A stretch of DNA of 56,752 nt, filler included, from Sluysia triapertura (Eukaryota), in the NCBI GenBank assembly GCA_046118255.1. It is 4 parts of 4 records of this genome, joined end to end, with 100 filler letters (N's around TTAATTAATTAA, not from the genome) between each part and the next. Parts side by side here need not be neighbours in the genome. Positions count along the whole stretch, not along the records: positions 30,852 to 43,983 come from JBJNIA010057656.1; 3 more parts are not named here. One strand, given 5' to 3'. Positions within the stretch are counted from its first letter, which is position 1. Every line of letters starts with the position of its first letter. Below, piece after piece: positions 2,639 through 55,975 of the stretch. The position numbers were made by a program, and so were the translations under genes. Below the pieces are notes generated by a model. The model was given only the letters and a program-made list of their open reading frames with translations, was not told where the DNA came from and ran no database searches.

Positions 2639-2724
2639 ATTAATTACTTTATTATTTTTTGTTTTAAAAAGAAAAATTTTTAAAAATCTTGAAAATTTGA
2701 AAGCCGAAAATATTGTGATGTCAT

Positions 2725-3780
2725 ATGGCGTGCAATAACGGATGCGATTTGATTTCAGAAATGGATGATGGTTTTAATATGTCTTACTTAAATGGTACTA
2801 AGATTCAGAAAATTGATACTGGCATCTACGAAACTGTTTATAAAGCTAAAAATTTAGATTCAGATGAAGTTAAAGCCTTAAACGAGGTAACATGGAGTGA
2901 ATATGATGAGATATCAGTTTATGTTCTTCGAGAAGCGTACAGTTTGAAGCTGCTTAATCATCCTGACGTGGTTCCGTTAGGAGAAGTTATGACGTATGAT
3001 CAAAGATCATGTATAGCGTTGGAATTTAAGCATTCTGATTTAGTTATAACATACGATCAAAGATCATGTACAGTGTTTGAATTTAAGTATTGTGGTTTAG
3101 TTATAACGTATGATCAAAGATCATACATAGTGTTTGAATTTATGCATTGCGATTTAGTAGATTACATGTTCGAAGTGAATTTTGAAACTACATAACATAA
3201 AATTAAAGATTTTATGAATCAAATTTTATCTGTTTTATATTTTTATCATTTTCGTAAAGTGGTTCATCGTCATTTGAAGTCACGAAATACCTTGGTTGAT
3301 AAAGAAGTTGACGTTTTAAAATTAAGTGATTTTAGGCTGGCACGTATGTATCCAGTACCAGCTAAAGATCTGGCTAAAAATTTAACAACTGTATGGTACC
3401 ATCCAATTTTTGTTATTCTTAATCATCGCCAGTATGGCGTCAGTGTTGATAGTTGGGCAGTAGGTTGTGTATTCGCAGAATGGGTTATAGTACTACCGTC
3501 ATTCAATGGCGATTCAGACATCGACGTGATTTTCAAAAACTTTTACATTGGTTTATGTAATTTCTTGTGTGAAGAAGTGATCGACCTAACTCACGAAATG
3601 TCAGAATACCATGATTATAGTTTACTCCACTTTTTGTTAGTTAAACTAGTTGATTTTAAAAATTATTATAGTAAAGAGTTTATTCATTATTTGTTTGTCT
3701 TTTTATTAATAAATAAACAATACCATTTTAAAAATCATTGTAGTAAAGAGTTTATTCATTATTTTCTGTCTTTTTGTTGA
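2725..3780 (+). pseudogene. Intronless CDK1/2-like kinase pseudogene or pseudokinase
   Basis: KIQKIDTGIYETVYKAKN, LRE, LNHPDVV, VFEFMHCDL, HRHLK, LSDFRLAR, TVWYHP, YGVSVDSWAVGCVFAE, FNGDSDID follow the CDK layout; in-frame TAA at 3193-3195 joins the two ORFs; G-loop, VAxK, HRD and DFG are all altered. Confidence 0.85.
2986..3156 (+). repeat. 3 x 57-bp in-frame tandem repeat inside the CDK N-lobe
   Basis: Units start at 2986, 3043 and 3100, each encoding V(M/I)TYDQRSxxxxEFxxxxL. Confidence 0.95.
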
Positions 3781-5778: not shown

Positions 5779-7328
5779 CAGTGGACCACAGATATAAAAT
5801 AACAGCAGTTTTTTTGTTTTATTTTAATTAATTATTAGTGATATTTATTTCTGATGTTATTATTAGAAGCATATATGAAAACAATTAAAATATTATTAAA
5901 AATAAATATCTAATTACTGCGCCATATTTGAATTAAAAAAATAAAAAGTGATTTTTACATGTGACAAAATTATAGCAACACAATTATAAAGTTTAATACA
6001 TTAATTAATTAGTCAATTTTAGTCAATCAAAGGTAATTAATTTTATTTAATATATTCTATTTAAATAATTTTTTGTTAGCTATTATAAATATAATTAAAA
6101 AATTTTTACAAATAAATTATTTTAAGATGCCAAAAGGAGAAACAATTATTGCCTATTGAAATTGGACAACTTTTGGTCTATAAAGATGCAAATTTGGGAA
6201 TAAGAGAAATTGGACGTCGCATTAAAAGAGATGAAGCACAATCAGTCGATTTCTTCAAGATCCCGAGAATTATGGCAAGAAAATAAGAAGATGACAGAAA
6301 CCAAAGTTGACATCGAGAGACAAAATGAGCATTCTTCGTGACAAAAATATGCCGCCAAAATAGATTAAATAGGTTCATCACTTCCTTGTTCAATAAGAAC
6401 TGTCCAAAGGGCTGCAGGTAACTGCCAACACTTAAGATATGAGAAGAGAAAGCCCAATCCAAAACTCACAGCAGTGCACAAGTCGGCACGGGTCACCTTG
6501 GCACAATTATACTTATCATGGATTTTAAAATTGCATCAAATTATATTCGGTAACGAGAAAAAAATTTAATCTTGATGGCCCTGATGGATGTCAGTTTTAC
6601 TGGCATGACCTGAGGAAGAGTCTGAAGTACTTCAAAAAACGTGGATTCTGAGGTGGTTCGATGGTGGCATTGGTAGACTTTGGTTGGAATGAGAAAACAG
6701 AAATTGTGTTCTTAGACGATAAATAAAACTCATAGAAGTATATTCAAACACTCATTGACTTTCTCATCCCCGTCGCAGGTCAAATTGGAGGCCAAAACTG
6801 GATCTTCAAACAAGACAATTGTTCAATCCCTTGCTCCTCGGAGACAACTAAATAACCAAAATCGGGTTTTGAGTTGGCCTTCTTGTAGCCCTGACTTAAA
6901 CCCCATTGAGAACCTCAGGGTTTAATCGTTCGGAAGGTTTACCGGAATTGACAAAGTAAAGGATTTGAAAGCAGCCATTCTTGCTGATTGGGAAGAAATC
7001 AGCCTTGGGGAGATGGAAAGTCTAGTTAGCTCAATGCCTAAAAGACTTATTGAAGTCTTAAATCAGAATGGTGACTTTATTGGCTATTAAAAAATTTTAA
7101 TTTTCAAGTTAATTAATTATTAAACTAGGTGTTGTTATATTTCTCTCATAAACTAAAATTACTTTTTTTAAATTAAATGTTGTTTATGTGATGATTAAAC
7201 ATTTTTGTCGTAATCAAATTAAAGGGTATAATCTTTAATAAATTATATTATTTTTTTCATAATTATTCAACAATTATTAAATGAGATGCATTAAAAAACA
7301 ACTGTTGTTATAAATGTCTCAACCTCTC
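5779..7328 (+). mobile_element. Tc1/Tc3-like DNA transposon, degenerate; transposase at 6127-7090
   Basis: TA-CAGTGG left end; frameshifted transposase with MPKG, IREIGRRIKR, FGNEKKFNLDGPDG..YWHDLRK, WIFKQDN, WPSCSPDLNPIENL, SMPKRL; imperfect repeated motifs near both ends. Confidence 0.9.
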
Positions 7329-7589: not shown

Positions 7590-7970
7590 TTTAAAATTTA
7601 ATAATGGAAGCCAAAATAATATATGTACAAATTAAAAATTATTCATTTGTTATTTTTTGAAAATGCTAAATTCGGGATTATGGAGTGTAAGAAACCAATA
7701 GAATATACTTCATAACCTATCAGAATCCAAAATGATTGCATATAATCATACAATCATGCACAGTCATATTCAAAATGGACGAATCAATTAATTTATACAA
7801 ACTATCAACTAAACTTGGTAACAAAAGCATGTTGGAACCTGAAATTTTCCCTATCCTATGTTATTTGAAATACAATCCTTTTATGTCAATAGTTTTGCTA
7901 GTTGTAAAGTTGTTGTGTTTCGTACTAAAAACATGCAATTCGCTAAATCTGTAGAAAACATTAAAAAATG
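7590..7970 (+). pseudogene. Divergent TATA-binding-protein-fold gene, frameshifted and intronless
   Basis: LLFFENAKFGIMECK, IQSCTVIFKMDESINLYKL, LEPEIFPILCYLKYNP /fs/ YVNSFASCKVVVF parallel the TBP repeat motifs (LIFxSGK; IQNMV...IRL; YEPELFPGL...IFVSGKVV). Confidence 0.6.
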
Positions 7971-30851: not shown

Positions 30852-31653
30852 TGTGAGAGAATGTTTGGTTGTGAGATTGTGAATTGATTGGATGATGAGA
30901 GAGTATAAAATAAAGATTTCTAAATTTTAACGCACAATAACACCAATAATGACGACGACAACAACAATGATGATAGATATGGAAATCCAAGCATCGAGTA
31001 AAGTTTTTAATTTTTATTTATTTATTATTTTATTAAAAATAATAAAAGTAATTAATTTTATTTCAATTTGAATAATTTTAATATTGCTACCAAACATTGT
31101 AGCAACGAGTGGTTATAACAGCAATAACAATAGTTGTAACAGTAATCACAAAATTATTATAACAATTTAGTATTATTATGACAATAATTATTATTATTGT
31201 GATAACAATTATGATAATAATAATTGTAAAATTATAGTAATCATAAATTATTACGACCGTGCTTAATTTTTGTATAAACTGAATAATATGTTTAGTAATT
31301 TATTTTGTAAGATGTGTCGATTTGTGCAGGTGTTTGCTTGTGATTATTATGAGTTTATTTGTAGTTCACTGCAAGTATAAAGTAACATTCACAGTTAATA
31401 ATAAAAATTTATGCAGAACGTTCTCAATTCTTTACAAAAATTTAAATCACGGACAAATGAATAGTTTTTTTAGCAATACTAAATATTCATTTAAACAAGA
31501 ATATTCTAGTTTCCAAATAGATTGGTTTTCTCCGAATTATACGATCCAGAAATGGTATAATTGGTTTCGTTTGTTGCAAACAGTTGGTTTTATCAGTTGC
31601 TGTTTGTGTGTTCAAAACTAATTTTACCATTCATCTCCTCTTAACTATGAAAC

Positions 31654-31812
31654 TGTTAGACTTCATAAAATGGACTGACCGGGGATCGAACCCGGGACCA
31701 TCGTCTGCGCAGTCCGACTGCTCTAGCACTGAGCTATCAGCCCCGTCTAACAATTTCATGTTTAATATATTCAATTATACTACTTGGCACTTTTAGGCCT
31801 TTTACCCCAACA
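31654..31812 (-). mobile_element. tRNA-bearing TG...CA element, copy A (159 bp, exact 4-bp TSD AAAC)
   Basis: Minus strand TGTTGGGG...TGTTAGAC-[tRNA-like 31671-31743]-TTTT...GTCTAACA; aaac on both flanks. Confidence 0.9.
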
Positions 31813-32339
31813 AAACATCTTTCTCTAAGCATTATACTAAAAGTAAAAAAATTGTTTCAATGACTTGTAATTTTTTTAATTTAATTAATTGTGTGACAAA
31901 CATCCTCTCTATTATGTTATTTAACATCTATGTATTAAAATTTGATAATGCATTTGTTGTTTATTTCTATTTTATTGTCAAGTTTTATTTTGATTATTAC
32001 GTAAAAGTCAATTTAATCATTAAATGTAAAATAAAAAAATCGTAAAATAAAACCGCATTACATTTTAACCGAGTCTTTAGTGCAAGGTAAACTTAAAATT
32101 AACAATATTAATTATACATTACGTAAATCATTACCAAACTAACCACAAACATTGGCTTAAAAATAAAATTTTAGTAAGATTTCTGAAGATTTTGTAAGAT
32201 TCAATCAATGTTTGATACTACTGTTTTGAAGCAGTTTCCTTACAGCATAAGTACTAATTGTTACAATAAGTTTCTTTTTTGTAGAAGAAATTCATGTTTT
32301 TTATAAGGGTAAATTTCAACATTTATACACTTTAGAAAA

Positions 32340-34074
32340 AATTCCACCATATCTACACAATCAAAATAATGAAATTCAAGAGGTGATAATCACGCAACAA
32401 CAACACATTAGGCAAAAAGGTAATAAGCACGCAATAATCATACCACCTCCTAATTATCATCCTGGGTTGTCAAAATCTCAGAAGCATAATAGACGTCGCC
32501 GTCAAATAAGACGTCTCCATAAAAAGGCAAAACTATATAAAAAAGATAAAATAATCAATCCTTTTCTTAAAACGAAACGTACTTAAGCTTTTTATTATTC
32601 CTAAAATAAGTAGATTATTTTAATTAAGAAATAAAATAGAAAAATAAACTAACAATTAAATTATTCTATATATTTTTTTATGTACTCTTTTTATTTTCTT
32701 AAAATATATACTATTTTGTTCAGATCGAGAAATGACTCAGCCTCATGCAAAATTATCAACAACATTTCTTCTTTCTATAATGGTATTGACGGCTTCTGTG
32801 GTCAGAATGACACACCTGCTATTTTCTTTAACTTTAAAACAACCCCCAATACTTTAAAATGTGAACTTGATGAACCATTTATAACCCACCTGTTTCACGT
32901 GAACAAAGTAGACGCCCCATTCGTCTTAAATACACTACAAGGATATCCCACTAATGATAGACCCATCTTAAGAGCAGCAGCAAAGGAGAATTTTAGGGTC
33001 TCTCTATTTGTTGATTTCGTTCCTCTACAAATACGAGTACAAAGTTTCTCATCTTTGTACATCACTAAGGCCTCAGATAAATGTAAGATTTATGTCGAGT
33101 TGCATTCTACATTCGCAGTCTTATTTGCGCTGGAAGAGCAGCAATTAGATATAAGAAATCACCCTATATTATATGATTCAGACAAAGAAAATATCTATAA
33201 ATGGGAAGAATGTGTAACTTTTACACACACGCCTCACATCTCTATATCGAATAAATCTAGTTTAATGTTTATATCAGTGCAATTAGCCTTAGATTTTAAA
33301 GACATACATCAAGTTATAAGAGCTTGCTTGATGAATTATCACCAGGCTTTCCATTCTACTGAGACTATCCGTCCTAGGATGAGGATCAAAAATTTTTTAT
33401 CCATAGATCATAAATTGCGGGAGGATGACGTAAAGGACGCATAGGACATAGATGAAATAAGAAAGTTCTGGCTAATGTCATACGATAAGATTTTAGTTTC
33501 TTTTTGCCCTGATATAATTATAAGAACCTTCAGAATTCCTTACGGTTGGTTAAGGGGTATAGTCAACTTAACCTGTACCAATCAAGTCTGTCATACTTCT
33601 GCGAATCCTGTAAGTAGAACTCGAAGAGTTTTACAATTATTATATTCATTTACACCGCGTTCTTTTAATTGCGAACAATTGGAACGTGATTCCTACCACA
33701 GTTGGTTATAAATAAAAATCAATGTCTAGTACCCTGTTCTTCTTCTCTATAAACATACTACAAAATCTTTCTTCAAACACGATCTGCACACACGACAGTC
33801 ACATTACATTTAAATATGCCACATCAATACCCCATGAAAATATCAGACATAAACAGGCAGAATCTGAAGATGACGTCAGAACTATCAAAAGGCGCAAATC
33901 AAATTCAGTAGATCTTGATGACAGCGACTGCGAGTCCATCCAATCCGATTTCCAACACGTTTTTGGAAACCATGGGAACATATTAGAAGATGAATATTTT
34001 GATTGTATGGATATTATCGACCTGACGAATTAATGATAACAAAATGGGGACCGATTTTTTTGATCGGGGAGTAG
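32340..34074 (+). mobile_element. 3' end of a Ty3/Gypsy-like LTR retrotransposon: basic pol tail, extra ORF, PPT
   Basis: Tail PPPNYHPGLSKSQKHNRRRRQIRR matches the integrase tail at 40340-40480; PPT ggggac...ggggagtag directly precedes TGTTGTG. Confidence 0.75.
32724..34033 (+). pseudogene. Extra ORF (~440 aa) of unknown function in the Gypsy-like element
   Basis: Follows acceptor ttttgttcAG; two in-frame stops and a frameshift; homologous to 39070-40244 (minus). Confidence 0.7.
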
Positions 34075-35098
34075 TGTTGTGTATGTATATTTGATAATCA
34101 TTTATTATTATGTGTTTGTGTATTAGTTTTAATTATTGATTATTTTAACGATTATTAATAACAATTATTATCTCAGAATTTTTGGAATTATTTAATTATC
34201 CTTTATCTTAATGTAAGTAAAAATTTACTATTTAATAAATATATATTATAAAATAAAATATTAAAATTAACCTTTAACTTAACATAAAAATTTACCATTT
34301 AAATAAAATATTATAAAATAACTTAAAATATTAAAACTATTGTTTTAAATTGGCCTCAAGGTCATTTAAAACTATATATAAATGCAAAAGTTTCTACACA
34401 GCATACACAGTTTTTCGGTTTTTCAGTTTTTTATAACAAGCTTTTCACAGTCAACTGACCTACTGTTTGGACACAATTTTTGAATTTTGAAGTACTCTCT
34501 CGTCGGACAATTTTTGACTATTTCTCATTCGTATTAGAATAAGTTTTTGTTAATTTATTTTATATAAGATTGATGCACTTGTGTATCGTACGTAACATAC
34601 AACTTAAAATCTATTTAACAATAATTCGGAATCCCATAACGATTCCCATGCAAAATACGTTTTTCTTTTAAAAAATTTTACATAAGATAAAGGACTAACT
34701 TTATTATATTTATTATATTATTTTATATTTATTATATTTTGTATAAATTTTTGGTTAATAAAACTTACAAAATATACGACTTGTTATTTGATATTCATTA
34801 AATTCTATAGATTTTGTCAGAATTTGATTCTGACCAAGAAAAATACATTAATTACGAATCCCTTTATAGGATTCTACAAAAAATATTATCTAAATTGCTT
34901 ACTTGAAATTATTTGTATAAAATACCTACCTCCAGAGGTTGACTTATTAAACACTCAGATTTGTGTTAAATTATTTCATTAACCTTTTTAATCGAAATCC
35001 AACGGTTGGGCATAGCAGGTAAGTCCAGTACGTTGGTGAACTCACAGTTTTAACTTAAACTTTTATTCTATTTACTTAACTTTATTTCGCTCACAATA
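34075..35098 (+). mobile_element. Probable 3' LTR (TGTTGTG...CACAATA) interrupted by an insertion at 34536-35069
   Basis: Starts at the PPT; TATA-like ctatatataaa near 34372; end is a near inverted repeat of the start. Confidence 0.55.
34536..35069 (-). mobile_element. AGAATAA...TTATTCT element, complete copy 4 (534 bp)
   Basis: 7-bp terminal inverted repeat, ATT on both flanks; core motif at 34995-35045; internal dyads gaatccct-ttat-agggattc and tcagaat-ttg-attctga. Confidence 0.75.
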
Positions 35099-35279
35099 GT
35101 TTAGTTTATTATAACAGTTTATGTGTTGAAGATTTTTTTTATTTTGAGTCTTGTAATTTGTGTGATATGAGTTGAAGTTGTGCAATGTCAAGAGTATTAG
35201 CGAATGACTTTTATATAAATATGTAACTGTACGTGGGAATACAAGTACAGTATATGACAGAGAGACCACAAGAATGGCA

Positions 35280-35918
35280 CTGGATATTGATAATTTTCAG
35301 CAAGAATGACAGTTGCTACACCATTCTGAACCCTCTAACTACCTGATCCTACTTGCACTTTACATCAGTAATGTTGTATCTACCCATACATCACTAACAA
35401 TATACCCAGTACCACAAAATTACAGGTATCGACCAATATCCTCCACAGATTGGACCAACTGATTTCGACCCTATATATGTGATGCTGCATTACAATACAA
35501 ACGAAATCCTAAACTAAGAAACCTTATCACGCCTGACATCCAAACAACCAGGTAGTTCATATACAATATCGTGGCCCAACAGATCAACCCATCTTCGAAA
35601 ATCAAACCTAAACAACCACCTCCTTCAATCCAATCCCTATACAACAAACTCCAAAACACTAGTGACAACCCGATAGATAAAATATTCCAATCCATATATG
35701 ATGTTATCCAACAGATTAAGCCACCCAAATTCCCAAACATTATGGCCCAACACAAAAGAGGCTTGCAACGCGAATCATTACAACCCAGCTTGGATAAGAT
35801 CTTCGCTAAAATCCAAGCCAAAGCATTCCATATAATTACTGGAATAGCCAACTTACCTATCAATCCCATACCAGAGGAAATCTGCCAGTACTACAGTACC
35901 ACCGTTCGACTCACTTAA
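35280..35918 (+). pseudogene. C/A-rich decayed coding-like segment, possibly retroelement-derived
   Basis: 115-aa Pro/Gln/Lys-rich ORF with composition like the nearby retroelement relics; no diagnostic motif. Confidence 0.25.
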
Positions 35919-36299
35919 AGTCACTCAGCTTCCAGTATTTCTATTTATCACACAAAAGTAATAATCATTCATCTTTAACTTGGGATCAGCGAATAATTTT
36001 CTTTTTATGTACGACAAATTATATTTGAATGAATTGATATAAGCTTCAAATAATTTAATATGATGGAACGAAATCTAGATACTTGAAATGATATTAGTTT
36101 TGTTTTTATAAAACAATTTAAAATTTTTATGAATTATGACTCTGGTTCAAATAAGTTCAACCTTTCATACTAGTTTTTAAGTCCCATTGGACGAAGTCAA
36201 GCTTTTCAGATATAAATTTCTGATGATTCATTCATTCGATGAAAATAATTATCGATAAAACGAATATATAACAAAAATAAACGAAAAATCTTTATTGCG

Positions 36300-37090
36300 C
36301 ACTACTTAATTATCCAATCATACTTCTTCACTCTGTGATTCATTTTTGATAACTTTCAAATTATTGTTTAATATTTGATGCAGTTTTGAATTTAGATTTA
36401 GGTTGTCGAGCTTGGCCTCTGCGTGCTAATATTGTCATACTCAAATGAGTTAGATATTATGTCTGTGTAGTGAATCGTGCATTTCTCTTAACATTCTTAA
36501 ACACGATTGTATGATAACATGATAACTCATTTTGTTGACTTGCAAAGAATGTTTCTAATACCAAATTACGTTCTCGATCGAATAAACTAATTAGTTGAAT
36601 GGATTCTTGGCATGGAAGTATATTCTGAAAATCGCATTTATTTCTGACAATCTTATTGAGAATTGATTGTAAATTATCATAATAAATTCTATAATCTGAA
36701 TCCCGTTGCATTTCTTCACAATACATTTTATATATCTACAAATCTGGGTATGATCGATTTTCATTAATTGATTTTCACGTTCAAAAACACTTCTAGTAAT
36801 ATCTGAAACGGGTATTTCACTTATTTCAATGTGCAAACCTTTTTCATACGATGCAATAGGTGCAAAATTACCAATTGGAATATGAATATAAGGATAAGAT
36901 ACTAAATTGGTTTGTAATACTGATATATCAAAATTAAGTACACCCTCGAAACTGAACTAATTAATTGTGCTACGATACGATTTATTGAATTATACGTTGG
37001 TGTGGTTGCTTCAGCGAATTTATTACATATTTTAAACATAGCTTCGACTCTATTAAAAATGATTGGCACCACACGTACATAAAAAAACAA
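36300..37090 (-). pseudogene. Interrupted intronless ORF of unknown function
   Basis: Three colinear ORF pieces; weak resemblance (FK...RF...LTHL) to the 21-kb ORF. Confidence 0.3.
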
Positions 37091-37419
37091 AAGAATAAAA
37101 AGAAAGGTTGATGATAAAGATAAAGAATAATAATGATAAAAATAACATAATTATTATATGTTTTAAAATAATGATATTGTTGATGTTAATATGAAAGTTA
37201 ATATGTTGTAATCGTGGCAATTATATTATACGACAATAATCTTAATAATTATTATATATTTTGATTAGATCTGTAATAACAATAGCTATAGTTCATGATG
37301 ATTATGTACAATGGTTATGTTTGTTTTTTGAATGAGTCAAGTAGTTTGATTAATGTTCTATGTATGTATGCAATGTTTTTATGTGATGAAGCATGGATAT
37401 TTTGATTTGATTTCCATAC

Positions 37420-39030
37420 ACCTCACCATTCTCAAATGTTGCAAGCGCTCATCACCATGTCAAAACCAAATAACATTCGAGAATTTAAATGGTATCGATC
37501 CCACTGGTCAACTGCTAGCCCTACTTTTTAGTAGAATCCTGGTCAACCAAAAGGTCTCGACTGCCTGGAAGAACTACAACACTGTACTGATAATCAAGCC
37601 AATAAATATGACTTGGAGCAAGACGTCGCTTCATGGAGACCTTCAGCTATAGTGGACTGCAGCTACAGAGTCTTTGCTAAGATCTTGAATGACCGGTTAC
37701 TGGCATGGGTCAAAAGTGCAACCTCATCAGTACACACCAAGCTGCTCTTCTTCATTCAGATGGATGCACAGAGCACAACTTCCTACTCCACCCACTTAGA
37801 GAAATAGTGGAGTCGATAAATCACAGAAAATCGCTCAAAATCGAATTACACAGTCTTCCTCGACTTAGTTCAGTGCCGCACAATCTGATAAGGCATACAC
37901 TCTCAAGTATGGGACTCTAACACCAAACCCCGAACATCCTGAAGGACCTATACCAAGACAGCAGTACCACTACTTACAAACCCGTACCGATCATGTATGG
38001 AGTGAAACAAGGATTTCCATTATCCATTAAACTATTCTGTCTGTCAATAGACTATCAGTTTCGCCAGTTCACTGATAATGACTACATCAAAATAACTGAC
38101 GACCTGAAATTTCCTCCATACCTGGCACATACTGACGACATAGCCCTCATCGGCACTACCTTCAATAGACTACAACAAATTGTGAACGAAATTGTCCGGC
38201 CTACGAAATGCTTCTACTACAACATTCCCGACTCGAGTTATTCACCACTAATCGAAATTACTCCGATTCCCTGTGTCACCAACGTGATGTGTCAGAACGT
38301 GATGTGTGCGTTAAGACTATTCAATACTCATACACCGATGATACGCACACTGGCACATCGGGAAGTTATACGGATAGCCAGAAGCCGGATGAATGGAGAT
38401 TGTGTGGATCTGACCCAAGCTCTTACGTGGCTCAATGGAAGTCCTACTGATAAACGCGCTAGGTTGCAAACATGGTGGTTGAAAATCTGAATTTCTATTA
38501 AGAACTTGAAACGAAAATACGGATCTCTGTTTCATTCATCTGCTCTGACAACTACAATGTCCAACTATCACTGAGTCGGACATACTTGGCGACAACCGAA
38601 TCATCATTAACCACAAAGTCGGCACTTGCAATACGAGCTGATCAGCACTTGCAATACCAAGTGCCAGGGTATCTATGTCGACTCTCTCATGCAGTACCCA
38701 CTTTCCAACCAATCCCTGTCACTTGAACCGGAAAATAATGCATGGATGTTTATGATCAAGGCCCGGAACAGTATCATTAGTCTTAATTTCAGTCCACGGA
38801 ACATACGTCTCCATCTGCCAGTATCATGTCGATGGTGTGGCTTCTGTTAGACTTCGTAAAATGGACTGACCGGGGATCGAACCCGGGACCATCGTCTATG
38901 CTCTACAACTGAGCTATCAGCCCCGTCTAACAATTTCATTTTTATTAAATTCAATTTTACCAAATGGCACTTTTAAGCCTTTTACCCCAATATTTCCCTT
39001 TCTGAAAGATTTGTCCATAAATCGTAAAAG
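37420..39030 (+). mobile_element. Decayed R2/NeSL/Utopia-like (RLE-type) non-LTR retrotransposon
   Basis: AWKNYNTVLIIKP, SWRPSAI..CSYRVFAKILNDRL, DGCTEHNFLL, SVPHNLI, GVKQGFPLS..LF, LAHTDDIALI, WMFMIKARN, CRWCG; zinc knuckle interrupted by tRNA element copy B. Confidence 0.9.
38845..38992 (-). mobile_element. tRNA-bearing TG...CA element, copy B (anticodon arm partly deleted)
   Basis: Aligns with copy A; flanks cttc/tttc. Confidence 0.9.
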
Positions 39031-39069
39031 ATAAAAATAAAGTGTTAATTAAAAACGTTAAATCACTGT

Positions 39070-41140
39070 AATGTCTTAGTCTGAATAATCAGAAGAACAA
39101 TAATCGATCGGTAGATAATCAAGTGGAGTAAACTAAGGTATACATTGTGTAGCGGTGTTGAAAACAGGTTTCCATTTCTTTAACTGCGAATGGAGAGTGG
39201 TGAATTATGATGAATTTCATGTTGGGTATGTGACTGATTTGACGTCGAAGGTCGCGCTTTTGGTTGTTGTAGCTTTATGAAATCAAGCGTTGCTGGTTGA
39301 TTGGTGGCAAGTATAACTGGCCGATCAGCGTGAGATAACAATAGAGTAGACACAGACTCAGAAATAGAAGTAAAAAGAGATGGTGGTGGACATTACAACT
39401 AGAGATAAAGGTCGGATGAAAGATTAGATATAAACTGAATACAGATAGGGGAAGAGTAGTTTCCAAGTCTGCCGAGATGAAGCAGATTGTCATTCTTAGT
39501 GAAAGAGATTAGATTGTGATTAGTCATGTTAATCACATCTCGTAACCACCAAAAGGAAGTTGAAACGTGTCGATCATGAGTCGTGGATTCAATGACACAA
39601 GGATTTTGTTATGTAAGAAGATAAGAAAGTACGAGCGGACGGAATCTATATCTTTGTATTCCGTAAGATTAACGCCACTAATACTTTGGATGTCGCGCGA
39701 GAAATTCTTTATGCGACATCACGGAAGAATCTTAGTTTCATGTAAGGCACGTGATATGGGACTTATCAAAGAAATCAAAAGCATGTTGGAATGCTGCAAA
39801 ACGTCGTCAAATTGGTATAATAAGTCCTGCTGTGCCAACGCCCAAGATTTTGTTGACAGAAAAGATGGAAAAGTATCAGGGTGCAACGGGAGTAACAAAG
39901 CTATTGTTGTCGGATAATCTAAAGCCTTAATCAGAACCTCACAAGTTATGGCGAAATATGTAAAGTGTAGAATGGAAGAACTCTAATTTCGCAACAACAA
40001 TGGGTAATTATTTACAATTAGCGTTACTTATACGACCCCTCGTGCTACAACATATAAAGAATCCAAATTATCAGGGTGTTGGTCAAACCTCAGAGGAAAA
40101 ACATGAGTTTTGAATCGACAAGGAAAAATGTGAGTTGCGATATCGCCTTTCAACTTATTATCTGTGGAGTGGAAGTCAGAAAAAAGGCAGGGGTTATTTT
40201 TTCAAAACGGAAACAGTCAATAGATTTTCGCCTGAGTAGACATTCTAAAATAAAACAAGGTACAAGTATAATGGAAAAAAAGTAAATTCGTAAGATTATT
40301 CTTTTAATCATTATTTATAATAAATAATACAATTTTTGGAATACCTTTCTTTTTAAGAAAATGATTACTATGTAGTTTGGTATTAAGAGCGTCTCGTGAA
40401 TTGTAGAATCGTCTCAATTGTGGTCTACGACGATTCCTTTTCTGACTTAGTGAGTCCGAGTGGATAGTTCGGCTGAGGTACGTACATTTTGGAAAATGAG
40501 TTTGTACTCTGATTGACACATCTAACGTCATAACTTTTTTTACAAGAGAATGAATGAGGGTGGTTTATCGCGACCTTTCGTTTTTGGTATAACTATTGGA
40601 ATTGATTTATGTACCTTTCTATTTCGCAAGTTCTATTCCTCACTTGGTGGCGCTCTACATCAATTTACATGTACTACGAAAGTTTTGGTAGAATCCTTAA
40701 CGAATAAATTAGTATTCATAATTTTCATTACACTTCATATGGTCCTTTAAAAAGTTTACGTAATTTTGGTGAATGTCCTGGTCATGATAAGGGATATCTA
40801 TTAATACTTTATCACAAACTGGAAAAATGTGTTACTTAGCTTTTTTATCATATGTATCCTTATAATACTCTGAATAATATTTAATTTGGAGACCTGCTCG
40901 TTTCAAAGCATCTTGTAAATTTTCTCGCATTATTGTCACATTTTCCGGAATATTCGTGTATTATGTGTGGTGCCCAACCTAAATCTGCGGAAGTGTTTGA
41001 ATGTTTACCGTACATTAAATAAAAAGGGGCGAAATTAGTGGTTGGGTGAACTGAACTTGCATAAGCGAATAAAGATGGAGCAATGTATAAATCCGAATCG
41101 GATTATCTGTCATTAATATAACTTCAATAGTCGCCAACGA
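39070..41140 (-). mobile_element. Decayed Ty3/Gypsy: integrase C-terminus plus downstream extra ORF
   Basis: DLYIAPSLFAYASSVHPTTNFAPFYLMYGK, KGPYEV (GPY/F motif), basic tail RNRRRPQLRR; extra ORF begins after ttttattttAG at 40244. Confidence 0.8.
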
Positions 41141-42178
41141 CAATATAAATTTTCGTGTATCCATTTAGCAATGATCATGTTTACATACTAGTTTCTTCAA
41201 TAGCCATGTACGTATAAATATTCATAACTTTATCTGATGCTATATACATTTTATTACACTATAAATATATATATATTTTAATTAGTTCACAATCTTAAAT
41301 TTTGATTAGTATTAACTTATTACATTTTTATTACACTAATATAAACGCATCAATACAAATTAAAATAAAGTCATTGAAATATGTCGTCAATTATTCTAAA
41401 GGCTTCGTTGCTTGTACTCAAGCATGAATCTCAGCTACATTCAAATTCACTGTACAATTAAAATTACTTTACAATTTTTTAAATTTGTGAAAAAACCAAA
41501 TTAAGACCATTTAGCATACTATTTTAACTCGCAATATAAATACCTATAAATACAATATTTTAATTTCAACGATTAGCTTTTTAGTATGTTTGTAGTATAA
41601 TTTAAAACGTACCAGAAAAAATAACATCAGGTGTTTCTTAACCCCGTCCTATACAAATAATAAATTTAAAATTACTAAAGAGTTCACGTTAAACTTAAAG
41701 GTTAGATTTTTCCTAAGTTTTTAATTAATCATTGAAAATTGTCATAAAAATTTTAATTTATTGACAATACATACAAAAATTTTATAATAGGTAACAGAAA
41801 ATAAAAATAAGACATAAACATAGTATCTTAGAATAGACAATAAAAATGTTGAAAAACCTTCCACTTCCTTAGATAAGAATACGCACATACAACTTTCATA
41901 TATAGGATTAAAATATAAAGTAAATGAAAGTGATCAAATCTTTGTTGAAAACACAAAGTATTCTTAATTCCAGCTCAAGCATATAGATTTCCATAATTAC
42001 ACAATTTAAAGTTATGCGAGGGAATTCAATATTGATTTTTTAAAATATTAATCGATAAACAAATCTTTTACTGAAAAACCTACTAGAACTTAATATAATT
42101 AACATCACAAACGAAAATAAACCTAACACATTTAAATAAAAATACAATTATAACGGCACACTTGCTAATAATGTTTGC

Positions 42179-42487
42179 TCAAAAACCATATTCTTTCAAA
42201 ATATTTTCTCGTTCCGACGGAGGAGGTAAAGCAGGCACAAGACCTTTAGCTTCCCTTTCTTTTGTTATCATTTTCTACACTAACCAATAAATGAAAAAGT
42301 AAAGATTAACCCAAAATTTGCGGCATTCAAAAACATTCTTTTGATAATTTTTACATTTGGAATTATCTGAACCATATTTCTCGGAACACCGTAACGACAA
42401 TAGTTTCTCCTAGCTAACATCATTTTTAGATTATATTACCTCATAACAAGGGTCTTCATCTTTCCATATTTGTTTCTGTTTAGACAT
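42179..42487 (-). CDS. CHCHD7: CHCHD7/COX23-like mitochondrial twin-CX9C protein, 80 aa, 3 exons (42440-42487, 42311-42409, 42179-42274)
   Basis: Spliced product MSKQKQIWKDEDPCYEEKLLSLRCSEKYGSDNSKCKNYQKNVFECRKFWKMITKEREAKGLVPALPPPSERENILKEYGF: CX9C-X10-CX9C, CRKFW and G..P..P...ER..IL tail; GT-AG introns of 30 and 36 nt. Confidence 0.92.
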
Positions 42488-42759
42488 AAAATTATTTTTA
42501 CATTTAAAAAATAATGTACAATTTTAAATACTTTAAATACGAAATAAAGAACATCATTTATCACATTTTGTTAATATACAAATGAATAAAAATTAAGTCT
42601 TATATGCATGGCCTGAAAATCAAATCTTATTTTAAACAAATTTTGTTATTTAAAAAATAAGTAATTTTTTGTAGGCATAATATTGTTTAATGAATTAATT
42701 TAAATTTAATTAATTAATTTAATTTTATCTGTTGATGGACAAATAATTAAGTTATACAT

Positions 42760-43210
42760 TTTTCAAAATTTGAAATTTTTCGCGAGTCGCAATTAAATAC
42801 GTATTAAAAAATTATGCAAAAAAATCCAGATTATAAATTACATCCGTAGCAGGAGTGATCCAAATTGTTTCCTCCAGAGCACAATATCAACTGTTCGTTG
42901 CAATTGCAATGAAAGTGTACAAATTCAAAATCGGTCTGGGGTCGGTCGATCACTGATTTTTATGTTGCGTCACTGTTTATGTTCACTGTTTATGAGTCAT
43001 CATTCTTAACTTGGGCGGAAATGAAATTTGTTACAACGTTTCACTTAGTCTTCCATATTTGTTGTCAGTAATTTAAAAGACATTTTGAAACACATAATAA
43101 CATATAATAACACAAATATGAAAAAGGAACTCGGGTACATTTATCGAGGACCACAAATAATCTTTCAAAGAGCCCCATGTTGCTCGCGAGCCGTGGTTTG
43201 GCCAACCCTG
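42760..43210 (+). mobile_element. Internally deleted hAT (Charlie-like) element
   Basis: Right end gctcgcgagccgtggtttggccaaccctg followed by ttatacat (also at 42752-42759); SNLKRHFETH BED-finger-like fragment near 43070; left TIR not recognisable. Confidence 0.55.
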
Positions 43211-43769
43211 TTATACATCAACAAACTTCTTACATTAAAATAAAAATAATAAATTTAATTGAAAAATAATTGAATTCTAATGTGAAGTGTTTAATGTTCT
43301 TATTCTCAAACAGATCATTCCACAAACATTCGAAATTCACTTCAAGATCCTTCTCTCTCATAGTGTTTGGATTCACAAGTGTGTGTTAGGAAATTAGGAA
43401 GAAATACATAGAGCTATAAAAGGAAGAGAGAACTGGTATAAATTGATGGATTTAACATTATAAACACTGTCGAAAAAAAATCATGAAAATAAAATCATAA
43501 AAATTATAACAGCTAAAGAATACCTTGACATTCCAAAGAACTATGTAAGGTGTCGAGACTTTTTGGAGGCTTGAAATGTACCTGAAAAAACTTTGAAGGT
43601 ATTAGAATACCTTTGAGCTTGTGGACCTTGAGATCATCTGAGACTTTATCAACCTTTAACTATTCTTGAAACTTTGATAAAATCTTTGAGTAATATTATA
43701 AAGTGTATATAATCTTTAAAATATTTGAGAAATACAATCATTGTTCAAAATAATAAAGATAAGTTTAAC

Positions 43770-43983
43770 ATAGTAATAATTAACATGAAGAAGTAGAAAA
43801 AGGAACCAGAGAGGTGAAAACATCTAGAGCCTTCCGAACGACTTATAAACTAGTAAAAAACTTTAGAACCTTAATAAACCCTTTAAACATAGAATAGGAT
43901 TAAGTCAAATAGATTAATTAATTAAAAATCTTAATTAACTTAATTAAGAAAAAGTATGTTTTTGTGAATAACTTTTGAATGCG
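43770..43983 (+). repeat. Partial copy of the LTR-like repeat at 45607-45996
   Basis: Shared gaagtaga.aaaggaa, actttagaacct.aataa, aattaacttaatta.gaaaaagta.gtttttgtgaataac. Confidence 0.8.
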
Positions 43984-47222: not shown

Positions 47223-47385
47223 TGTTGAAAAACAGGTCTAAAGTGCCATTTAGAATAATAATAGTATAATTGACTTAATTTGTTAGACGTGCTGATAGCT
47301 TATTGATCAGAGCATCGAACTGTACAACTATGAGGTAAGAGGTTCTGGATTCAATCCCGGTCTGTCCATTTAATGAAGTCTAATA
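47223..47385 (+). mobile_element. tRNA-bearing TG...CA element, copy C (diverged)
   Basis: tgttg...aaagtgcca...tgttagacgtgctgatagct...ccggtctgtccatttaatgaagtctaata; flanks ttta/tttg. Confidence 0.85.
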
Positions 47386-49920: not shown

Positions 49921-50050
49921 TGTTGGGGGTAAAGGCCTAAAGTGCCATTTAGTATAACTGAATATAATAATCTAGGGCTGATAGCTCAATGAGTAGAGCA
50001 TCGAACTGCGCAGCGAGGTTCCGGGTCAGTCAATTTTATGGAATCTAACA
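49921..50050 (+). mobile_element. tRNA-bearing TG...CA element, copy D (internal deletions)
   Basis: tgttgggggtaaaggcctaaagtgcca...gggctgatagctca...atctaaca; flanks aaac/aaat. Confidence 0.85.
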
Positions 50051-53737: not shown

Positions 53738-53895
53738 TGTTAGATTTCGTAAAATGGACTGACCGGGGATCGAATCCGGGACCATCGTCTGCGCAGTCGA
53801 TGCTCTACCACTGAGCTATCAGCCCTATCTAACAATTTCATTTTTAATATATTCAATTATACTACTTGGCACTTTTTAGGCCTTTTATACCAACA
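53738..53895 (-). mobile_element. tRNA-bearing TG...CA element, copy E (tRNA-like 53755-53825)
   Basis: Close to copy A; core GGGCTGATAGCTCAGTGGTAGAGCATCGACTGCGCAGACGATGGTCCCGGATTCGATCCCCGGTCAGTCCA; no TSD. Confidence 0.9.
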
Positions 53896-53960
53896 AAAAT
53901 AAAATTTCTTCAAATAAGTCTATTAGTTACAAATCATTTTATGAACATCAAGATAATAAT

Positions 53961-54660
53961 ATGCTACCTATTATCAATTCCAGAACTAAGAAGCAGATTG
54001 ATTTATTAGAAATTTTAATATGGTATCATAGCGAACTTCAACTTTTAAAAGAACCTAATATACTTCCTAATGTAAAACACTGGCTGAGTTACTTTAACTT
54101 GAAGTATGATTCCCTTAGTAACGTTAAAGTCATAAATCTTAACCTTGACTAACAAGATTTTTTATTGCCAAAGTCAAGAGTAGTATTGTTGATAACGATC
54201 ATCAATAACGATTATCAACGCTTATGTCAAATCCAATTTACGAAAGTGCTAATGAAACAAGTATGATCGATGCATGCTTATCAGCAAATCATATATGCCA
54301 TTTCAACAAACACCATAAAGGTCTATTAAAACAAATACGGAATCCTTAATTACAAACGTACAAGAACCAGTTTATTAATCGAATATAAGTACGGAATTTA
54401 TTCCTATCTGAGTGATATCACAATACGTAAAGCACAGTGTCCTTACCAATCAAATGCTTATGGAGAATGTGCCACTTTTGGAAAATTTTGTACCTTTTAT
54501 CACAATATATTTCAACTTAATGGAGATGACTATGAAGTTCATCAACAAGTCAAAGTCAGTGATCTTCAGAATCTTCCAAAGCACGAAAACACTAAATCTT
54601 GCTCAGATTTCACAACAGAAGTCTATTGCAATATGAGTCTAATAAAAATTAATATAAACT
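53961..54660 (+). pseudogene. Frameshifted intronless ORF with CCCH-type zinc finger
   Basis: Frame not shown in the ORF track reads YLSDITIRKAQCPYQSNAYGECATFGKFCTFYHNIFQL (C-x9-C-x6-C-x3-H). Confidence 0.65.
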
Positions 54661-55975
54661 TTTCTATCATTTTAGTTGTAGATATTACTTATTATATGTT
54701 TAAAAATAAAATCTTTCATAGTGTTTTAATCTTTTATTTGTATGAAGAAAATTTTAAAGAAAATATCATTTTAAATCGTTTAAAGCATGAATTTAATAAT
54801 GTCTTTTATTTTTTTAATTCAGGTAAAGGTAATTTATACTTTTCTTATTGTATATACTTGACTTTAACACCCTTAAACACAAAAAACATATTGAACTTAA
54901 TATCAAAACAATTGATACCAAACGTATGTCATCCAAAAACTATAACCCCAAACACAATTTAATTCTATACAACTAAAATCATATTCGTTTCAACAACACA
55001 CAATAATTCGTTACAACCGTTTTTATATCTTATTTCTTTCCAGACCCACCAAAATCAACTTCTATTTTTCAAAAACATTTTAAAACCTACCAATTACATT
55101 CAAAAATCAACATAAAACAATATCGAACTAAATCAACACATTGTACATAAAACCATACTCTCTAATATTTTAACATTCTCATATTTATCTCCTCTACATC
55201 AATTAAAACAATTTATCCGCTTAAGTCAACTTAAACCCACATTCTCTTAACAGGCAAACCACAATTATATTCAATTATTTATTGACATTAAAAAAATCAT
55301 CTAAATATTTTATTCTCCATTTCTCAACAATTCAATCACAATCACATTCGAGATTAACTAACAAATATCTTCAAAGCAATCTAAACATTCTAAATTCATG
55401 ATCTGCATCATTTAATTTTCTACAACACATAAAGACATCACTACTTAAACATATCAAGAAAATAAATCACATTTCAACATCGTACAATCACCTTTTGTAC
55501 ATAATAAAAGTTAAGATATACTAAATTTTAGTACGTAGATACTATTTTGTACATACTATTTTCTTTGCATTTACTAAACTACACCCTTATAACATATTAA
55601 TAATCATGATCTATTAACATTTTCAGTTAGAAACATTATTTCATATAGAACATTAGGCTTAATTATCTAAAATTTACGTAAAACTAGAAAACAGCAGTTA
55701 AAATCTATATTAAAACGCGTTACACATTTTCTTAAAACATAAACATCACAAATTCACAATTCTGTAAGCTTCATCTTTTTTTAAGTCTAATGTGCTCAGA
55801 AGGTGAAGAATAAAAGACAGATCAAGTATAAAGTTCTTTTTAAAGATAAAGAATTTATGTATTTATCAATAATAATAACATTTTTGTTATTATTATTACT
55901 ATTACCATTTTAATTTTCATTATTTATTTTCGGCTCAATTTATCAAATACAGACGAATAATTAACTGGGAAGCTG

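Follow-up and report, generated by a model that had tools for sequence, protein, structure and literature searches.

A conserved third open reading frame, very probably not an envelope gene, in two Gypsy-type relics of Sluysia triapertura

Introduction

The third open reading frame (ORF) of Gypsy retrotransposons is often called env by position; in the few such cases that were investigated, the product was an RNA-export factor, a nuclease, an esterase or a tiny fusogen. Here we describe two decayed elements, copy 1 and copy 2, in a stretch of 56,752 nucleotides (hereafter the window) joined from four parts of the Sluysia triapertura assembly GCA_046118255.1; both lie in the part taken from JBJNIA010057656.1 (positions 30,852 to 43,983). 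Behind a homologous basic tail each copy carries a homologous third ORF, which is very probably, as judged from its sequence, a real and selected gene other than env. The window has about 25% GC, and its contents are scattered gene relics and repeats.

Several described systems resemble this arrangement in part. CERV, encoded by Cer1 of Caenorhabditis, is accessed through a splice acceptor and bears a short basic nuclear signal (PMC10309623). It is a protein of 517 amino acids (aa), in which gag-derived exons are joined to a 3' ORF, with a cysteine-loop M domain and a Rossmann-type G domain (PMC10309623), whereas the third ORF described here has an apparent ATG of its own, is weakly predicted to be strand-rich and gave no hit among 1.84 billion representatives; CERV itself was not directly compared with it. 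The function of CERV is proven (PMC10309623), while the role of the third ORF is a prediction from sequence. The bdelloid elements Juno and Vesta carry family-specific ORF3s located 3' of pol in animal Gypsy elements and typically spliced, which are DEDDy exonucleases, GDSL esterases, coiled-coil or membrane proteins (PMC5408684). Neither the exonuclease nor the esterase family was detected in the third ORF by Pfam and NCBIfam searches at E up to 1.

Env of the errantiviruses (PMC13524379; represented here by three loci from viral contigs, L002, L019 and L026) occupies the same slot between integrase and polypurine tract (PPT), behind an integrase 32% identical to that of copy 2; unlike env, the third ORF is shorter and lacks an env domain, a conserved pattern of cysteines and, in copy 1, an anchor. 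In some moth elements sORF2, a FAST-like product, is a non-env accessory ORF located 3' of pol, with 63-107 aa and one membrane helix (PMC11952523); the third ORF is about 4 times longer and, in copy 1, not membrane-bound. The giant Gypsy elements of planarians, Burro, likewise carry unusual accessory domains, but these and an env-like part sit within a giant polyprotein 5' of the reverse transcriptase (RT), and the portion of the paper drawn on describes no ORF 3' of integrase (PMC6431247). Of the domains in this polyprotein of about 4900 aa (BIR, BCL2, MATH, ankyrin and in-frame env domains), none was matched in the third ORF. Gypsy elements are abundant in planarians (PMC11410931), and for env-bearing elements of Platyhelminthes a gB-type env and the order GAG-ENV-POL were reported (PMC13524379). 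The initial annotation of the window had stated that errantiviral env sits at this place; the slot behind integrase is as it described, and, with the host probably a flatworm, the gene order reported for that group makes the framing weaker than it implied.

Homology and selection between the two third ORFs

The copies lie on opposite strands (copy 1, plus; copy 2, minus), facing each other about 5 kb apart, and are separated by unrelated relics, namely, a tubulin fragment, a weak RT match and a tRNA-bearing repeat. The third ORF of copy 1 has its main frame at 32725-33711 (+), with 328 codons and a single internal stop at 33442-33444. That of copy 2 is located at 39498-40221 (-); its main frame (40198-39548) is interrupted by three stops, and the frame changes near 40190 and 39550. 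The peptides quoted in the initial annotation are present in both, and the homology that it proposed was confirmed: tblastn within the window gave 27% identity over 254 aa (E 2e-11), and the Smith-Waterman score of the pair was 153, whereas 2000 shuffles averaged 34 and did not exceed 78. One of the nine frame pairs scored, and the other eight remained at 24-41. The two basic tails, also claimed as shared, proved homologous, with scores of 59 and 64 that none of 500 shuffles reached, and the C-terminal tails of copy 1 and copy 2 gave no detectable alignment. By blastn no DNA similarity was detected between the copies, so that they are not a local duplication.

The mode of conservation was examined at the codon level. 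Within 200 aligned codons, identity at the first, second and third positions was 0.50, 0.62 and 0.28 against a background of 0.25, 0.29 and 0.27; the alignment is protein-guided, so that positions 1 and 2 are inflated, and the shuffle and frame tests are independent of this guidance. Different codons were used at 42 of the 66 identical residues, and the proportions of synonymous (pS) and nonsynonymous (pN) differences were 0.79 and 0.46. Further copies were obtained from X1, one public sequencing run, possibly of the source sample, the contigs of which were compared with 31900-34150. Among the matches listed, six short X1 fragments lie inside the ORF, and three of these align without gaps; inspection by eye of their 24 codons gave 13 with synonymous changes only, 8 with residue changes, 3 identical and no stop. 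Because the codon-position pattern, the shuffle and frame tests and the X1 fragments agree, the ORF appears to have been under purifying selection at the protein level while the elements were active, and the initial claim of conservation at this level holds.

The best-conserved blocks correspond to residues 208-283. The 66 shared residues are mostly hydrophobic, proline or threonine, and include one cysteine, three aspartates, three histidines and no glutamate, without an obvious catalytic set. No internal repeat was found in the ORF protein.

Gypsy context and the wider family

Copy 2 is a Ty3/Gypsy element by the C-terminus of its integrase, which carries a GPY/F domain at the end of pol. 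The end of the integrase core and the GPY/F (SH3-like) domain occupy 40660-41123 (-) and contain stops and frameshifts. Direct sequence searches had found no relatives of this piece before a generic RT motif scan of viral contigs, which gave 76 loci, all of which were then searched against the window. From 13 loci inspected for ORFs resembling pol, 7 with a complete pol and an integrase zinc finger were picked for an integrase profile, leaving 69 of the 76 loci out. Among the six frames of the window this profile hit copy 2 only, with E 1e-8 at 41123-40695 and a second frame at 40948-40796. The closest single integrases among the 7 fetched were those of L002, L026 and L019 (32-33% identity); tblastn gave 32% identity to L002 and L026, with E 4e-7 and 1e-6, and the L002 pol is a Pfam-confirmed Gypsy pol. 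Pfam was weak for the decayed integrase of copy 2 itself (SH3_Tf2-1, E 0.064). Sequence upstream of the integrase end, including RT, was found by profile, Pfam and tblastn searches of the window to be lost in both relics.

In copy 1 no integrase is left as judged by the profile search in six frames of the window, and the basic tail at 32287-32586 (+), homologous to the extension behind the copy 2 integrase, is its only tie to Gypsy. A Gypsy pol tail had been assigned to both copies; this is correct for copy 2, and for copy 1 the pol tail is inferred from that of copy 2.

On 31900-34150 we found 706 X1 contigs, mostly less than 95% alike, and these represent a multicopy family; contigs of this run match the basic tail of copy 1 from 32282-32287 onward. 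One contig covers 32509-32778 (31 differences, 18 gap letters) and runs from the tail through the spacer to the start of the ORF, thus providing a third example of the tail-ORF linkage. The summed X1 contig depth per bin, which is no copy number, reached 12,000 on the tail and was about 100-1100 on the ORF, with values at 32432-32583 (+) that are 10-100 times the ORF depth. Nine X1 contigs diverge from the tail at 32516 into an earlier stop and other sequence. The basic tail may be shared by a much larger family whose 3' cargo differs, and many tail-bearing elements may lack the third ORF or carry another.

An X1 contig has a loose end at 32287 (+), where 10 codons before the tail and in frame with it resemble the last part of a RING finger, with CPxCR and then hydrophobic residues, a motif which we take to mark such an end. 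Some family members may have a RING domain between integrase and tail, and no RING-like segment was found in copy 2. A second run, X2 (organism B, share 0.09), was considered as a second host; its ORF pieces have a depth of 2-4 and one is identical to the window, so that carry-over is possible and the run was not counted.

Candidate splice acceptors and starts of the third ORF

In both copies an AT-rich spacer lies between tail and ORF. That of copy 1 (32587-32723, +; 137 nt, 14% GC) ends in a pyrimidine tract and CAG (32721-32723), a candidate splice acceptor. In copy 2 the basic tail at 40304-40613 (-), behind the integrase and split over two frames, is followed by a spacer at 40245-40303 (-) of 59 nt and 22% GC, which ends in a pyrimidine tract and TAG (40247-40245). 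The acceptors are thus placed at 32723 and 40245 as initially claimed, and neither has an AG within 25 nt upstream of it. The frequency of sites as pyrimidine-rich as the two acceptors is 1.6 and 0.3 per kb on each strand, and that of sites with an ATG within 12 nt is 0.31 and 0.09 per kb, under criteria (pyrimidine richness, ATG distance) that were set after the sites had been seen.

An ATG is located 8 nt 3' of the acceptor in copy 1 (32732-32734, +) and 1 nt 3' of it in copy 2 (40243-40241, -), in both cases out of frame with the long ORF, and by eye the two begin similar short peptides. Since an ATG follows the acceptor closely in both copies, the third gene probably has its own start right behind the acceptor, each relic being broken within the first 20 codons; the ATG at 32732 is likely the original start of copy 1. 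The sequence is compatible with expression of the third gene from a spliced subgenomic RNA, which we regard as rather likely.

An internal promoter in or before the AT-rich spacer, with the acceptor-like sequence incidental to a real gene, is the alternative for expression and is judged fairly unlikely. With its own ATG right after the AG in each copy the gene would need no upstream exon, and the spacers are very AT-rich. Against this, a pyrimidine tract with YAG at the same spot in both copies is unlikely by chance at the site frequencies given above, the copy 2 spacer has just 59 nt, and bdelloid ORF3s are typically made from spliced messages (PMC5408684).

The 3' ends of the two copies

Downstream of the main frame, copy 1 has a 105-codon C-terminal frame at 33716-34033 (+), which contains KRRK and ends in an acidic stretch, with D/E at 15 of the last 55 residues. 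It was open in 6 of 5000 shuffles, a codon-position model favours coding, and it is likely the tail of the third ORF gene after a frameshift. A candidate PPT (34066-34074, +) stands directly 5' of a TG; the tract plus TG (34066-34076) is one of just 2 sites with this pattern in the scanned window. A candidate 3' long terminal repeat (LTR) follows at 34075-34597 (+), TGTT...AACA, with a TATA-like box at 34373-34382 and a right end guessed from motifs; its portion 34075-34150 was compared with X1. Neither a second LTR nor a target-site duplication (TSD) for copy 1 was found in the window, and the LTR stays a candidate. Of the ending originally described for copy 1, the KRRK motif with its acidic tail and a PPT-like tract are present, although the motif lies in another frame and the LTR is no more than a candidate.

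The C-terminal region of copy 2 (39050-39497, -) has a coding frame that is not fixable: two frames have hydrophobic stretches, and in one frame acidic residues come after a short basic motif. At the 3' end of this copy a purine tract at 38993-39010 (-) adjoins a tRNA-bearing repeat at 38845-38992. This repeat was considered as copy 2's own LTR and has probably inserted separately; three of its 4 TSD letters match, as in two other old copies. As its own 3' LTR it would make copy 2 the autonomous partner of a tRNA-LTR family, which seems quite unlikely.

Comparison with envelope proteins

As positive controls we used the ORF3s of L002 (5188-7014), L026 (270-2099) and L019 (3549-5681), env-carrying Gypsy elements, two of F-type and one of gB-type. 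All three were recognized, with matches to Baculo_F at E 2.5e-39 and 3.2e-37 and to the gB-type fusion family at E 8.7e-260, whereas no Pfam family matched the ORF of either copy. Pairwise scores of the copy 1 ORF with the three control envs were at shuffle level. The coding frames of copy 1 peak at Kyte-Doolittle values of 1.24 and 0.95 as compared with 2.41-2.64 in the controls, and the third ORF has about 430 codons against 609-711. The copy 1 ORF is without a membrane segment or anchor. For copy 2, two frames of the C-terminal region reach hydropathy 2.2 and 2.6, and its frame there is not fixed, so that the absence of an anchor, initially stated for both, holds for copy 1 only. Near the start, where both copies are broken, the long frames are hydrophilic, and a short hydrophobic run was seen by eye in the copy 1 ATG frame. 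The initial view that the ORF is not env-like is supported by these comparisons.

Searches for relatives and structure models

The third ORF was searched against protein, viral, metagenome, prokaryote and phage sets, which include no animal genome collection, so that the blanks reported here say nothing on other animals. A word-based protein search, restricted to near lengths, gave 78 candidates for copy 1, none of which passed, and 4588 for the two-copy alignment, with none at E up to 1. An exhaustive phmmer search of the 1.84 billion representatives gave no hit, and the ESM Atlas no usable hit for the first 239 residues. No relatives were found in viral contigs, metagenome contigs, prokaryote genomes or phages; four pattern hits in viral contigs were dismissed as chance. 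PDB sequences gave best E values of 0.54 and 2.7, and Pfam, PHROGs and NCBIfam no family match. No description of the third ORF was found in the literature by title or abstract start, with Repbase entries and paper supplements outside the comparison. The AlphaFold models of both copies are poor (predicted local distance difference test, pLDDT, 34 and 30); these low-confidence models agree only in showing many strands in the first half, a long helix near 191-210 and, beyond it, mixed alpha/beta structure. The protein thus appears to be an orphan, a new protein in a known kind of slot, as non-env third ORFs are already known.

Other features of the window

The tRNA-bearing repeat noted above belongs to a repeat of about 160 bp, TG...CA with a tRNA-like core, present in five copies (31654-31811, 38845-38992, 53738-53898, 49921-50050 and 47231-47383). 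ARAGORN calls a tRNA in two of the five. Four-letter TSDs match completely in one copy and at three letters in three copies, and one copy has none. The repeat resembles solo LTRs of the Helenus TRIMs, which are miniature retrotransposons with terminal repeats (PMC10886601). A decayed RT relic, probably non-LTR, lies at 37535-38840 (+) (Pfam RVT_1, E 0.004 and 0.08) and ends in a CxxC motif where the tRNA-bearing repeat starts.

Gene relics include a broken cyclin-dependent kinase (CDK)-like copy at 2719-3777 (+), with Pkinase E values of 3e-7 and 1.5e-20 and three internal 57-nt tandem repeats, preceded on its 5' side by an orphan frame of 183 codons (1637-2185). Fragments were found of a tubulin C-terminal domain (36594-36956, -; E 8e-5), TBP (7736-7951, +; E 0.001), an Unkempt-like CCCH finger (54330-54959, +; E 0.005) and a Tc1/mariner-type transposase (6116-6922, +; E 0.005).

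Discussion

The best explanation of the whole, which we hold tentatively and at somewhat less than an even chance, is that the copies are distantly related Gypsy relics with a spliced, non-env third gene for a soluble nuclear helper of about 430 residues acting on element RNA. A basic motif such as KRRK followed by an acidic stretch is a layout typical of nuclear proteins, and for the third ORF protein a nuclear location is predicted with about equal weight for and against. In the proposed mechanism, a short leader from the 5' LTR would be spliced to the acceptor, removing gag-pol, and translation would start at the ATG just 3' of the acceptor. The KRRK motif would then direct import of the protein into the nucleus, where it would act like Cer1 CERV or HIV Rev so that unspliced genomic RNA is exported; an element that splices out gag-pol would face the same export problem as those do. 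RNA export or processing as the job of this protein is suggested by analogy and remains doubtful, and the likeness to CERV and Rev would be one of anatomy, not of membership.

Several observations weigh against this explanation. The function is read by analogy. KRRK is present in one copy only, in a separate frame, and no alignment was obtained between the two C-terminal tails. The phase in which the acceptor meets the long frame differs between the copies: with an upstream start one copy would have to be broken, and with an own ATG both would. The cysteine-loop M and Rossmann-type G domains of CERV are not evident, one of the 66 shared residues being cysteine. No homolog was found for the ORF, both structure models are of low confidence, and the protein-guided alignment inflates identity at codon positions 1 and 2.

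The same anatomy would fit a soluble counter-defence factor, which dampens silencing by the PIWI-interacting RNA (piRNA) pathway, RNA interference (RNAi) or chromatin, or alters a host pathway. The ORF is an orphan that evolved fast under selection, Burro elements have domains that target apoptosis and ubiquitin pathways of the host (PMC6431247), and a basic-then-acidic tail would also suit a chromatin protein. As no chromatin, RNA-binding or nuclease family was matched, we consider this role rather unlikely, on a par with the internal promoter treated above.

Capture of an enzyme or structural protein, much changed and now beyond sequence detection, is an unlikely origin, slightly behind the counter-defence role. 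Captures of a DEDDy exonuclease and a GDSL esterase in the third-ORF position are documented in bdelloids (PMC5408684), in both weak models the N-terminal half is rich in strands and the C-terminal half mixes alpha and beta structure, and the best-conserved blocks lie together at residues 208-283. Opposed to it are the blank searches of Pfam, NCBIfam, PHROGs and PDB sequences and the composition of the shared residues, mostly hydrophobic, proline or threonine with three aspartates, three histidines and no glutamate in 66.

A highly divergent or truncated env, or another membrane protein with signal peptide and anchor obscured by decay, is very unlikely. The third ORF does stand in the env position 3' of an acceptor, the closest fetched integrases (L002, L026 and L019 among 7) come from env-carrying elements, and an RTRR site is found at residue 298 of copy 1; the short hydrophobic run in the copy 1 ATG frame and the two hydropathic frames at the end of copy 2 may be added. 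These are outweighed by the lack of a Baculo_F or gB-type match where the controls gave E 1e-37 to 1e-260, the shuffle-level scores against control envs, the low hydropathy peaks of copy 1, the short length and the single shared cysteine. Furthermore, the copy 2 ATG is about 8 codons away from the first block of homology, which leaves no room for a signal peptide unless one was deleted there.

Unselected cargo, in the form of a fragment of a host gene acquired by chance, is an extremely unlikely reading of the ORF: the X1 depth (no measure of copy number), in which the basic tail greatly exceeds the ORF, is in its favour, and the reading is opposed by saturated third codon positions and a conserved protein frame at the same position in two elements without DNA similarity, by the synonymous excess in further X1 copies and by the lack of a host gene family match.

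Returning to the spliced nuclear helper, a wider version may be considered, speculative and unlikely as a whole. An ancient Gypsy lineage of the host group, probably flatworms, would carry a new protein family with a new or unrecognised fold in the env slot, in which a Rev/CERV-like nuclear export factor evolved independently; some members would have a RING finger in the pol tail as a second accessory module.

The evidence base is two dead copies, and similar orphan ORF3s turn up often. An orphan ORF that was kept under selection until its silent sites were saturated mattered to the element. Should the protein export RNA from the nucleus and be unrelated to CERV and Rev, it would represent an independent solution to the export of unspliced genomic RNA, and the generality of the need for RNA export in animal retrotransposons would become testable.

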